A stretch of DNA of 64,000 nucleotides from Pecten maximus (Eukaryota): NCBI RefSeq assembly GCF_902652985.1, contig NC_047023.1:28396001-28460000 (forward strand), given 5' to 3'. Below, piece after piece: positions 27,001-45,000 of the stretch. Numbering within the stretch: the first letter of the stretch is position 1; each line of letters opens with the position of its first letter. The position numbers were made by a program.

Positions 27001-30000
27001 TTCGAAGTCTGTCTACTTTGGGGTCATGTGTATGTATATATATATCAAACAAACAAAAAATGTCCCTTTTTCCCTATTTGTGTTTAGTAAAATTTGTATT
27101 CTGGTTTGGGTATGGAGATATGAAAGTCACCGTTGAAAAGGAGTTATAGAGACAAGATTGATTGTTTACGGTTGGCCCATGGGTAGATCGTCTCTAGATC
27201 TGCACGTGTACGCGCACAGAGCGTGCACCTTGCCGTGTCTGAGTGACTGTCGAATAGCTATACACCGGTAAGGAAAGCCCGTCTGGATGTTAATTGTCCG
27301 TAGTTACAGGTACATATACAAGTGTGTACTATTTGATTTCGGTAAGTGTTTCTGTGTTAGAACTTAGACGTTAAAATTAATATCCAACTCGATTTTTTTG
27401 GAATGTGCTATATTATGTTGTAGTTACCTCCCTTAGAACGTCAAATCCATGCCAGCAACCAACGAAAATATCAATCGATTGATACGTAAAGCGTATGTTT
27501 TTGCAGTGAAGCATGGGTATTGGTAACAGAAATACCATCCGTTTCGGAGTGTTGGTACTAGTGCTTTCAACCTGTAAAGGTAAGTACATAAATACTTGAA
27601 AAATACATTGATAGATTAACAATACATTTTACCACAGGGGTTTGATACAAATTCCAAACCATTTATGATTCATATGAATATAATTTGTGCCAAATGCATG
27701 TGAATTTTACGAAATACTAAGTTAAATCATAGTCTACATATACTTTTAGAATTAGAATTTAACGAGTAACCAATTTAGCCTATTACACTTAGTTATAATA
27801 TAGATATTATAACGATCATATCATACTAACTATTATTATTATAATTAAATACACTGTTTGTAAGTCCACGAGGTATTGTCTGTTTATCGTCTTTTTCAGT
27901 TTCCCTGAGTCAGAATGCCAGTAAGTATCACCAATTACATTTCACTTTTTTTTTTCTTTTTTTTTTTACAATACAACATTTTAAAAATACAACATAACGT
28001 CCGGCATCAGCGTTTTTCTTGGACAATGTTTTTATCAAGGCTGGAGTCATTTGGCATTCACATCCATTCAAGATTTCAGAGGTCAAATATGTTAGGCAAT
28101 AAGGAAAATGTTTTCTTTTTTTCAGTTTGTCATTGAACACCATTTTCAATGTAAAATAGACCAAATGTGTTTAAAACCACTTTCTGTTATCCAAGAGATA
28201 CAGGGGAGTTGAGTTTAAAATGTAGTATGCAATAAGGGTCAATTTTGACCCCATTTCCAAAATAAACAAAACGCACACAATATCTTACCCTAGTATTGTT
28301 GCATTTGAAAATGTACTTAATTAAGCGACCTCGTGTGTTGTTGCTTAGCAACGGCCCTTAGAAACGGGCCATATTTAGGGCAGTTTTAATGCCATGTCAC
28401 CAAGAGCGACAATGCTAGATACGTACTTTCACAAAAGTATCCTTATTTAAATACATCCAAATCAAACAGTGTATATCGTCAAAATCGCGGAGAAGGAAGG
28501 TGGCGATAAAGCGAGGTTTTACTGTATATCGTATGGACTGTAACTAGAGTTGGTCGTTATTAACTTGTGATATCATCAACAATCTATCTTAGCAACCAAA
28601 TATTCACCTTAGCAACCACATGTAATGCATATACACATACATATTATTTCGATTTTTTAAATTTCTGTTTTCTGCAGAAGTATCCATTTACATGTTAATA
28701 CTTTGGTCAAAAGTTGTGACTTTGATTAACTTCAAGTGATAACCATGTAAACATATACCTTAGTAACCAATTGCCCACCATAGCAACGAAATGCATGTGA
28801 TATTTACAAATTTATGACATACGATATTACCTTAGTTATTGTTGGTGTTTTAAGGAGCCAGTCATCTGCAGTTGACCAAATTACTTTTATCTTAGAATAT
28901 TTTACCTGTCGTTGGTTTAGATGTTTTTTTCAATCTACAATTGGAATATTTTTGTTGTGCAAGCATGCGCACATAGTTTTTCTTTGCATTAATTCCGACG
29001 AAAGTGGATCAAAATATCGATTTTGAACAAACAAGCTCTATTTAGTAGTAATATATTTTACGCAAATTCATTTTAGAAAAAAATATTGAAAATCAAATGT
29101 AATTTCTCTATCGATTAAAAATGCAACAGAAACCCACCAAACAGTACATGAACTCGTACATGTATATGATTATTCCCAGATGTTCGGGAGCACAATATGA
29201 TGCTATACTGCATACACTTCTTTGCCTGTAGGCTTGTTCACTATTGTGCGGTTTCATGACCTTTGTCCAACTGAAAGGTCACATGAATCAAATATATCGG
29301 ACTTCTTCCTAAATAAAGAAATGGAGATGTACACGACAGAAAAATCTGACATGTAATAAACCTATCGACACGATAAGATCAAATGCATTGGATGCTTTTT
29401 ATAACTATAAACAGGCCCTTTGAGCCACTTGCTTTTTATCGATACTGTAGAGTCATTGCACTGACTATGGGCGCCTTTATCACTTAGTCTTAAACGATAT
29501 CACTTAAACGAGTATGATGTCACTTAAACGACTTTGTGATGTCACTTAAACGACTATGTGATGTCACTTAAACGACTTTGTGATATCACTTAAACGACTT
29601 TGCCAGTAATCCACTCTCGTGTCAATAATACACGCTCGTGAGTCACGGCTGTTACAATTTCCCCCCTCCAAAATCGTGCATTTGTAAACAAACATGGCGG
29701 TGCCAAAACGTTTGAACGTCGGAGACCGTGTATTTTACAACGGAGAAAGCTCTTTGCCAGATTGTTAATTTCTATCAACCCTGAACAGACTTTGCTAAAC
29801 AATATGTTGTAAGGTCAATTTCCACAGGCAACCTTTGGGGAGCATTTCTACATGAATTGCTGGCCGACGTCCCCGAAAGTTCTCGTAACGTTGCCGTCAA
29901 CTGACTTGGGATTGACGTCAGCTTTTGAATATTAATTAGCACGCGCGCCTTATCGTTTCGTATGAATTGTAACAGCCATGTAGCGACACATTTCCCGGGG

Positions 30001-42000: not shown

Positions 42001-45000
42001 ATACTGTGCCTTAGGGAGCTGTTGGAGACAGGGGAATGACAGGTCCTATAGGACCAGTAGGGTCAACAGGACTGCAGGGACTCCAAGGCAACACCGGATC
42101 CCAGGGACTCACTGGAATTAACGGAGAAAGGGGCGTCACAGGCAACTTGGGACCTCAGGGTCCTCGGGGACGTACAGGCATACAGGGGTTACTAGGGGCA
42201 CACGGAAGTCGGGGTGAGACTGGTGATAGGGGAGATATGGGTGACGCCGGAAGTACAGGCATTAGCGGACTTCCGGCGGCCACTGGTGTGGCAGGCATAG
42301 CAGGCCAGGCAGGAATAAAGGGGCCACTGGGAGACAAGGGACCAATGGGATCCCAAGGGGATGTAGGTGTAGAAGGTGTAGCAGGATCAACCGGAATTCG
42401 AGGCCCTGTCTGGGATCCCTTTGGTAAGTAGGTACAGGGATAAACTAAAGGACTTGTCATCAGTTGACAGAGTTTGGTTTTAATTATCGTCGCCGTTAAT
42501 GCCTTTCTGTTCTTTGTCATACTGACGGTAGCAGAGGTTCTAGTCAATAATAAATTAACGACACCTTTTTCACGTTTACGACAATATAAATTCAGCAAAT
42601 TCAGTCCACACATAAACTGAGAAGTGTAATTGATTCATAAACTATCACACATGCGCATTATTATCTTTTCATGTTCTCTCATTTTGAAGTTTTTGAAATG
42701 CACCATTTAATAACAATTTTAACGCATTACCTGACTAGTTACTCATTGCTTCAGCACAAAACATAACCGATTCTGAATCCTGTGTATAAATATTTCAGAT
42801 GTGAACTATTGCGCCATCCACGCGGGGGACTGTGACCATGGCTGTACAAACAGCCCTGTTGGGTACACGTGCACCTGTCGACAGGGCTACAATCTACTAA
42901 ATAACGGAGACTGCCGAGGTAGGTATTGCTTGTCTGCCATTCCGTCTTTAAGGCTGCGAGTTCAATCAGTCAGTAGGACGTCAACTAATGCTATAGGGTG
43001 AAGATCTGAGATATGTGGTTCACTCACTTGCCGGGCGGTTAGCGTTTCTCGGGAGGCCGAGATCAACATGTCCTGGTTGCTCCGGAAAGGATATTGCGGT
43101 CCACGTGATTTCCATTGGGTTTGGGGAAGCCACCAGCTTCAAGGAGTTTTCGTTTCAAAATGACCGTGTCTGTTCATGGGAAAAGCAAACACAGGTTTTC
43201 AACTAACTTGGAGACATTTTTGAATTGAATTGATGAATTTCTTTTAATTTATAACTGTCCCCATTGTCCGTTTATCACACAGGATTTCATAAATGTAAAC
43301 TTTACATGATTTGCAACAATATCGAAACAAGTATACCAACTTGTAAGTCATCGCTCTTGTTGGCGCGGATAGAAGCGCTCGAGGGGTCTTAGTGTGGCAG
43401 AAAACCGGAGTACCCGGAGAGAACCCACGTGGTCAGACAGGTGACACAAATATCTTTTCATGTCCGATCTCGGAATCGAACCCTGGCTGCCTAGGTGAAG
43501 ACAAGCATGGCATAGCTAGAACAAGGAGTTTGAGGCTAGATTTCGCTTATACTAATGTCTCTTTATTAAAAAGTTTTATGTTTCCATTCCTCTGTCTCAG
43601 ATATTGATGAGTGTATCACAAAGAATGGTGGTTGTCAGTATTTCTGTCAGAACACCGCCGGAAGTTACGTATGTTCCTGTCCACAGGGATACATACTGGC
43701 GAGAGACGAACATAGGTGTGACGGTAAGTGTCCTAACCGGAACCGGAAGTACACTGTATAATGGCAATGTAAAATAAATTTTCGAATACAATTAATTCTA
43801 ATGTTTCTACCTTTTATATATAACTGTCGTTTTTTTTCACGGAATATATTAATACGATTTGTATGTTAAAATACTTCTAATGTCCCGTTATTGACGAGAG
43901 TGATTTTCATGAATTGATTGTCAGATATCGACGAATGTCTTGAAAATAATGGCGACTGTTCCACTGACCAAATGTGCATCAACACGTGGGATGGGCACAT
44001 GTGTTTAGGTCCCAGCACTGTTTCAAATGTCGCAGGTCTCTGTAAGTATGACGTCATATCATGTATTGGTTTTTATTTGTGTAAAACATGTGTATGGTAA
44101 TTATAACAGAATTCTGAACTGGTATGTACTAACCATCTCCATCATTTTGCTAAAAAAATATCGCAACACTGCTGTATGACCTTGACATACGTCTGTTTTT
44201 ATCCTATCAATTTTAAATCTATCATTACTTAAACTAAACAGCCACTACGAACGAAGACATGCTGACCTATTCCATGTTTGTTGGTATCATCATCTGGATG
44301 GCTGTTGTCACGTTCATCATGATCTTGGAAGTGGTTTTACTTCTTCCGGAACTCAACAACCGGTCCCGCCGTCCAGAGTCGCCAACATCTATAGCCCCGT
44401 CCGTCATAATTGAGGAGCAGAACCCAGAATACTATTTCCCCGCCTTCTTCCCGCGCGTGCGCCTTGGGATCCGGGATTATTACAGTAACGCTAGGTCAGA
44501 GACCAACGAGAAACGCCTGCGTCTGTAAACAGACATGAATTAAACTATCATAAAATGTTATCAACGTGTGATATTTTATTATACCCCCACCCCCGTCGAA
44601 AGAATGGATACAAGGTGTTTCAGTCCTAATTCTGATGATAATTGTGAAACAAAATGTTTTAATGCAAATACAATCTTAAAGAAACACATTTTGATGACAC
44701 TTGATTATATTTGCATCACCGAGTCGTTGTGCATTGTATTGTAATCGGTTCATTGATCAAATGTCAAATATTCAGTATAATTTTGTCTGGGTATAAGGAA
44801 CATATACACTTTCATGTACATCTTCCCTTGTTTTTTATGGAAATGTCAACTGTATTGGTTCAGAAGGCTAATTCAGACAACATAGTTCGAGCAATTTTTA
44901 TGTCGAAAAGATCAAACTTATTTCATGTTGAATGGTTTGTCACGTTCTAACGGAACTAGACGTGTTGTACACGTGTTATCGGTATACACGTAGACTAGGA

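Follow-up and report, generated by a model that had tools for sequence, protein, structure and literature searches.

We analysed a 64,000-nucleotide stretch of the genome of the scallop Pecten maximus (NCBI RefSeq assembly GCF_902652985.1, contig NC_047023.1, positions 28,396,001 to 28,460,000 of the forward strand), hereafter referred to as the window. Our focus was a locus on the + strand, 27513-44528 in window coordinates, that an original prediction made from the sequence alone had described as an unnamed transmembrane collagen with a receptor-like architecture. The coding span corresponds to LOC117334544, and its public product is an 'uncharacterized protein' of 739 amino acids (record P0001). 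A script mapping protein to DNA found P0001 encoded letter for letter by the window in 13 pieces, which excludes chance as the source of the coding span. The gene is already public, as an unstudied prediction.

The coding sequence is 2220 nt long and runs from an ATG at 27513 to a TAA stop codon at 44526-44528. All of the introns (12/12) have GT-AG boundaries, the phases are consistent, and GC content is 0.518 in exons and 0.343 in introns. Splice sites were assigned by hand and by script, and searches with window sequence were made exon by exon. The original prediction had counted 12 exons; there are in fact 13 coding exons, two of which are micro-exons of 21 nt. On its sequence, the span is a single gene encoding a predicted single-pass type I membrane protein, the parts of which (leader, two head domains, collagen, epidermal growth factor (EGF) modules, transmembrane helix and tail) follow one another in the order first proposed, with small corrections.

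Exon E1 (27513-27579) carries the start codon and the n- and h-regions of the signal peptide (MGIGNRNTIRFGVLVLVLSTCK), and ends in phase 1. Micro-exon E1b (27900-27920, VSLSQNA) likely encodes the c-region and the cleavage site. The first half of head domain 1, with an invariant Cys and an LQLW motif, is encoded by E2 (32921-33150), and the second half, with an invariant Cys and GNTYTF..Y..T..YG, by E3 (33490-33709). The reading frame of E2 stays open to 33209, and its donor was set at 33150 by the public protein and by homology to E4. Micro-exon E3b (34265-34285, DTQPSTV) encodes the linker joining the two head domains, and head domain 2 is divided between E4 (35818-36059) and E5 (36433-36655). 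E6 (41390-41529) encodes a linker, AIIPQPVT, and 13 Gly-X-Y triplets, and E7 (42015-42423) encodes 44 triplet positions (43 with Gly and one AAT), followed by WDPF. Three EGF-type modules follow: a 6-Cys EGF lacking the canonical calcium-binding consensus in E8 (42799-42918), a full calcium-binding EGF (cbEGF) in E9 (43601-43723), and in E10 (43925-44041) a cbEGF that ends after Cys4, together with the start of a juxtamembrane stalk. The last exon, E11 (44242-44528), encodes the remainder of this stalk, the transmembrane helix (44265-44342), the 61-amino-acid cytoplasmic tail and the stop codon. No second copy of the head half or of the collagen and EGF half was found within the 64-kb window.

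Tandem repeats lie close to several of these exons. A 34-bp minisatellite of ~70 copies (30442-32852) occupies half of a 5-kb intron, stopping 68 nt short of E2. A 39-bp minisatellite of ~37 units (34399-35825) runs into the E4 acceptor, such that the real acceptor and first exon bases of E4 come from the last, degenerate 39-bp unit. Because each unit holds 'ttctag|cttatttt', ~37 cryptic acceptor-like sites lie upstream of the true one. A further 39-bp tandem array (31 copies, 97% identity; 44955-46168) begins 427 nt past the stop codon; no + strand AATAAA follows the stop before 47910, so that the array is possibly part of a long 3' untranslated region.

Domains of the predicted protein

The leader occupies residues 1-29 of P0001, with a Kyte-Doolittle maximum of 2.84 over FGVLVLVLS. 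In P. maximus a hydrophobic N-terminal leader of 22 amino acids is followed by SLS|Q, and small residues at -3 and -1 in the orthologs (SLG|QN) point to this as the likely cleavage site. The transmembrane helix (residues 653-678; Kyte-Doolittle 2.84 over IIIWMAVVTFIMILEVVLL, with NNRSRR after) is the sole long hydrophobic helix outside the leader; it lies 61 amino acids from the C-terminus and is followed by PEL and basic residues. A signal peptide combined with a C-terminal transmembrane helix and positive charges behind it is the layout expected of a type I protein, as was originally claimed. The type II orientation of the MACIT collagens, with an N-terminal cytosolic domain, a signal-anchor and no cleavable leader, is absent.

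The two domains of ~150 amino acids described in the original prediction correspond to residues 30-179 (150 amino acids) and 187-341 (155 amino acids), and hhalign shows them to be homologous (99.5%, E 9.2e-23, 129 columns, 24% identity). BLASTP related the second halves only (E3 against E5, E 0.002) and gave no match between the first halves (E2 against E4), for which homology was visible only by profiles. Each head domain is encoded by a 21-nt micro-exon and two further exons with identical phases (1-1, 1-0, 0-1), and therefore a three-exon unit was duplicated. Two invariant Cys and a C-x3-LQ-x-W motif are present in each domain (four invariant Cys in all), and each probably contains one disulphide.

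No Pfam model passed for the head domains, whether the four head exons, whole records or six N-terminal regions were searched. NCBIfam returned noise only on the head regions, and a head-region profile found no relative among PDB sequences (best E 0.53). Against domain 2 of P0001 the Pfam Lectin_like model reached 15.2 bits (E 0.025), below its gathering cut-off of 27. In an Atlas model with a whole-protein predicted local distance difference test (pLDDT) value of 0.51, domain 1 of an abalone ortholog has TM-scores of 0.63-0.81 (by query) to bacterial beta-sandwich clusters. The best values by query, 0.81 and 0.77, were to clusters of unnamed domains beside PASTA/TIG, and the PF18560 Lectin_like cluster gave 0.65 by query and 0.62 by row.

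PF18560, which we take to be built on the beta-sandwich that follows the protease domain in C. difficile Cwp84, may share a fold with the head domains, as its place among the structural neighbours and the weak profile match both suggest; it is a bacterial family. Cwp84's lectin-like domain is described as a beta-sandwich of 13 strands that carries a calcium ion, resembling carbohydrate-binding modules (PMC4089489). The 'beta-rich' nature of the heads is suggested solely by the structural neighbours of the abalone ortholog, and on this modelling 'lectin-like beta-sandwich' is probably a reasonable fold label, with a putative binding role. In a feature search, abalone domain 1 and scallop domain 2 (~24% identical) separately reached the same three unnamed clusters (0.93-0.95), two of them mostly sponge and one mostly annelid, which consist of proteins of 173-206 amino acids. 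The head domain has no family name, was previously undescribed and is apparently old in animals.

The collagen segment spans residues 350-520. Both of its exons exceed the gathering cut-off of Pfam Collagen (PF01391; 27.2 bits), with 31.2 bits (E 1.8e-7) for E6 and 78.8 bits (E 2.6e-22) for E7. Pfam scans of whole records gave the same collagen and EGF kinds as the exon-wise scans. The 57 Gly-X-Y triplets of the original prediction stand as 57 triplet positions, of which 56 have Gly and one has Ala. The length of the segment is 171 amino acids in 4/4 scallops and 170 in 3/3 abalones; a stalk that keeps its length across so deep a divergence suggests that the distance from the membrane is of importance. 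Single interruptions differ between lineages: in Mizuhopecten yessoensis a different single triplet is broken (EAQ), and two residues are inserted in Haliotis. Among scallops, the Y position is most often occupied by Thr (13-20 of 56-57 triplets). Mann et al. 1996 reportedly found glycosylated Thr in stabilising positions of a vent-worm cuticle collagen.

The EGF modules come after a W-x-P behind the collagen. Two full EGFs with six Cys are present, as the original prediction had it, although only E9 of the two is a canonical cbEGF. The E8 module passed the Pfam EGF cut-off (26.3 bits against 21.5) and failed that of EGF_CA (23.8 bits against 27); it has DVNYC in place of DxDEC, lacking the E/Q, and so is not a canonical cbEGF. 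E9, with 40.8 bits for EGF_CA (PF07645), is the sole module above the cut-off of 27. Its nearest solved structures are modules of LRP4 (4.8e-18), thrombomodulin (3.5e-16) and LDLR, and it is 53-56% identical to its abalone counterpart. E10 begins as a cbEGF (DIDEC, CINTWDGHMC; EGF_CA 22.6 bits) and ends after Cys4, the 4-Cys half EGF noted at the outset. All of the full-length orthologs (6/6) share this truncation, which marks the half EGF as a feature of the family rather than an error of the gene model.

The cytoplasmic tail is 61 amino acids long and contains NPEYYF and DYY. It holds a motif, PEYYFPAFFPRVRLGIR in P. maximus (44424-44474; also given as PEYYFPAFFPRV), with the family consensus [PT][ED][YF][YF][FY]P[AT][FY]FPR[VI]. 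Compared with abalone, this motif keeps 64% identity over 17 residues, the highest value among the regions compared, whereas the whole tail is only 34-40% identical. The ~60-residue length and several Tyr of the original prediction were borne out, but the tyrosines are not conserved. In the ortholog alignment NPEY occurs only in P. maximus, and its Asn is shared only with Ylistrum balloti; the position reads NPEF in Ylistrum, STEF in Argopecten irradians, SPDY in Mizuhopecten and RPEF in two Haliotis. The conserved NPxY of endocytic receptors of the LDLR or CED-1/MEGF10 kind is lacking, and a phosphotyrosine or NPxY reading of the tail is weak because its tyrosines are not conserved. YxxPhi, PDZ-ligand, NPxY, GxxGER and RGD motifs were considered and dropped, as none is conserved across the orthologs.

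Family members and host range

A phmmer search with the E2 frame (32920-33207; 77 true residues and 19 intron read-through residues) against 1.84 billion representative proteins gave seven matches at E up to 0.001. The best was P0001 (E 4.5e-45), and P0005, from the abalone Haliotis asinina, is also a true relative. The remaining five (P0002, P0003, P0004, P0006 and P0007) are immunoglobulin, F5/8-type-C or HYR repeat proteins or junk, and were rejected as repeat-inflated. Kinship of P0004 was rejected at an hhalign probability of 0.1% against the head profile, and a discoidin link by sequence was dropped along with these matches.

Searching with the head region of P0001 gave four matches among 5105 candidates: P0001 itself, Y. 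balloti, A. irradians and M. yessoensis. The head region of P0005 gave three among 2737 candidates, adding Haliotis rubra (an incomplete record of 560 amino acids) and Haliotis cracherodii. When a profile of six head regions, with P0001 left out, was compared with longer proteins, 8000 candidates were scored and the same six full-length proteins, and no others, were recovered. The full-length architecture is present in P. maximus, three other scallops and two abalones (H. asinina and H. cracherodii). Overall identity to P. maximus is 70-73% in Ylistrum, Argopecten and Mizuhopecten, and 34% in H. asinina and H. cracherodii.

The hosts belong to two mollusc classes, as Pectinidae (Bivalvia) and Haliotidae (Gastropoda). 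No member was found in oysters, mussels or other animals with word-index searches, which miss distant kin, and an exhaustive search that used 77 true residues. Because of this limited sensitivity, the evidence that the family is absent outside scallops and abalones is weak. In agreement with the original view that no named family applies, all records are named 'uncharacterized' with the exception of the Mizuhopecten ortholog, which bears the automatic UniRef label 'Collagen alpha-1(XXI)'; the heads match no passing Pfam model, and full-text searches, with subscription papers and supplements outside their scope, returned no relevant paper on a type I membrane collagen or on these gene identifiers.

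A putative receptor on a collagen stalk

To our knowledge, all membrane collagens and collagenous receptors known so far are anchored N-terminally. Class A scavenger receptors are homotrimers that bind polyvalent ligands. Together with collectin-12 (SR-A, MARCO, SCARA5, CL-P1) they share with the scallop protein a membrane collagen stalk, distal heads and a short tail. However, theirs is a type II topology in which the heads, of the SRCR or C-type lectin kind, are C-terminal and a coiled coil is often present, whereas the scallop protein has N-terminal heads of another kind and EGF modules between stalk and membrane; Pfam at E up to 5 found no SRCR or Lectin_C domain in P0001, P0005 or P0011. 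The MACIT collagens (XIII, XXIII and XXV, and COL-99 of Caenorhabditis elegans) are likewise integral-membrane collagens. They are described as type II proteins with a largely collagenous ectodomain containing interruptions (PMC4678570), in contrast to the type I layout, single near-continuous segment of 57 triplets, globular heads and EGF modules found here.

Other likenesses are more partial. The scallop protein shares calcium-binding EGF and collagen repeats with CCBE1, compared here by description only. CCBE1 is secreted, with EGF and cbEGF modules before two collagen repeats, and has neither head domains nor a transmembrane helix; in the scallop protein the EGF modules follow the collagen and a transmembrane helix is present. 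Collectins, ficolins and C1q-type proteins are secreted, with a C-terminal head, whereas the scallop protein has none of their domains, carries its heads N-terminally and has a transmembrane helix. Thrombomodulin and CD93 are similar in their type I topology, lectin-type head at the N-terminus, short tail, and EGF and cbEGF modules close to the membrane, but they lack collagen, and they carry as their head a C-type lectin domain, of which the scallop protein has none. The same polarity (N-terminal head, collagen-like stalk and C-terminal surface anchor) occurs in the streptococcal proteins Scl1 and Scl2, described as homotrimeric 'lollipops' (PMC6736723). This is an analogy of form only, as Scl1 and Scl2 are bacterial, with an LPATG wall anchor and helical heads, and lack EGF modules.

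The architecture leads us to favour, with little more than even confidence, a homotrimeric type I surface receptor that is the mirror image of the class A scavenger receptors. The rise per residue of the collagen helix is 0.286 nm, so that over 171 residues a triple helix of three chains would be ~49 nm long. Standing on a short base of EGF modules stiffened by calcium, such a stalk would hold six heads far above the membrane, where they could engage a multivalent ligand, for example a glycan, a component of the matrix or the surface of a microbe. The conserved tail motif, with its aromatic residues and prolines, may recruit a cytoplasmic partner that serves uptake or anchorage. Collagens are described as nucleating at their C-termini (PMC11923368). 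Because collagen helices zip from that end, the three membrane-tethered EGF and transmembrane ends would set the register of the helix, perhaps in place of the missing coiled-coil neck.

Several observations weigh against this receptor. A host range of Pectinidae and Haliotis only is odd for a core immune receptor. The head fold comes from the Atlas model of low pLDDT; the Lectin_like match was seen in 1/3 whole proteins and 0/6 N-terminal head regions, and sugar binding by Cwp84's lectin-like domain is itself described as unproven (PMC4089489). In the stalk, no coiled-coil neck is evident, Pro occupies only 3/56 Y positions in P. maximus, a rarity that makes helix stability uncertain, and the Gly to Ala change (AAT) at residue 476 occurs only in P. 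maximus, where a fixed change, an allele or a sequencing error are all possible. In the tail, the first aromatic residue of the motif is Phe in four of the six other full-length orthologs, and no known signalling domain was found with Pfam on the last exon or among PDB sequences at E up to 10.

It is possible, although we regard it as unlikely, that the protein is instead a membrane-anchored matrix or adhesion collagen, perhaps shed, that ties the cell to the extracellular matrix, to the shell or periostracum matrix or to a neighbouring cell. Collagens XIII and XVII tie cells to their surroundings in such a way, and the same parts would serve this role as serve a receptor. Furin-type shedding has been described for the MACITs, whereas the scallop protein has no dibasic or furin-type site from the third EGF to the transmembrane helix; shedding by a metalloprotease would still be possible. 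Known membrane collagens are described as adhesive and shed (PMC4678570, PMC10538796). P. maximus and Argopecten carry an RGD within their collagen, but neither RGD nor GER motifs are conserved across the orthologs. Heavy shells in both host lineages are consistent with a matrix role, yet searches of limited sensitivity turned up no member in oysters, mussels or other molluscs with shells. Finally, the conserved tail motif argues for a function exerted while the protein is membrane-bound.

A fusion in the annotation, joining a secreted two-domain gene to a collagen-EGF membrane gene across the 4.7-kb E5-E6 intron, appears very improbable. That intron is long, with an intact retrotransposon inside it, and the orthologs are all computer predictions too. 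However, the end of E5 and the start of E6 are both in phase 1 with good splice sites, and no stop codon, second start or leader fits between the halves, neither of which has a second copy in the window. The junction of head and collagen also lies within one record in six other species from two mollusc classes with independent annotation. Since the order is preserved in seven records from two classes and the phases fit, the exons flanking the retrotransposon belong to one gene, as originally proposed. Least credible of all is a diverged member of CCBE1, the collectin, ficolin or C1q-type proteins, the class A scavenger receptors or the MACITs, since shared collagen and cbEGF modules and the automatic UniRef name of the Mizuhopecten ortholog stand against a Pfam result lacking SRCR, C-type lectin, C1q, fibrinogen and VWA, a type I topology with EGF modules behind rather than ahead of the collagen, and a head profile that finds no PDB relative and only the same six among longer proteins.

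The surface receptor that we favour may be part of a broader picture, which we advance as a doubtful proposal. The proteins would constitute the first described type I membrane-collagen family, a convergent and inverted counterpart of the class A scavenger receptors. A ruler of 57 triplets would have stayed unchanged from bivalves to gastropods, carrying six new lectin-like heads of a kind that also occurs as stand-alone sponge and annelid proteins of ~180 amino acids. The triple helix would nucleate at a membrane-tethered C-terminal end and owe its stability to Thr, perhaps glycosylated, instead of hydroxyproline. If so, a family of opposite polarity would mean that the design in which a collagen stalk bears heads had arisen more than once, and would offer a natural test of triple-helix folding with the C-terminal nucleation end tethered. 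The unnamed head domain represents a candidate recognition module for invertebrate immunity or matrix biology. Until expression and binding have been established, these proposals carry modest practical weight.

Other features of the window

The E5-E6 intron contains an intact open reading frame of a non-long-terminal-repeat (non-LTR) retrotransposon (37391-40963, - strand; 1190 amino acids), which is antisense to LOC117334544 and not part of its protein. Pfam identified an APE endonuclease (Exo_endo_phos, 8.2e-11), a reverse transcriptase (RVT_1, 4.8e-34) and zf-RVT. Just ahead of the endonuclease domain, at residues 132-139 (40547-40570), lies a 2A-like 'DIESNPGP' ribosome-skipping motif. Such motifs have already been described in APE-type non-LTR elements of molluscs (PMC3708506).

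The region is rich in tandem arrays, with further minisatellites at 9330-10177 (60-bp), 19575-20358 (48-bp) and 49751-50722 (33-48-bp units). Two identical open frames of 109 amino acids on the - strand (56157-56486 and 59623-59952) flank a 155-bp satellite of 13.5 copies (57206-59300); with arrays of ~150-bp units on both sides, the whole resembles a composite repeat that has been duplicated. Scanning the window with Rfam and for tRNAs gave no match. The window is low in GC and has a single run of N at 52872-53022, far from the gene.

Upstream of LOC117334544, several long Ser-rich open frames of up to 346 amino acids lie on the + strand at 13368-16887; they have no Pfam match and are probably exons of a neighbouring gene with a disordered product. 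An open frame on the - strand at 1521-1811 matches a leucine-rich repeat (LRR_4, E 3.3e-7) and is probably an exon of another gene.

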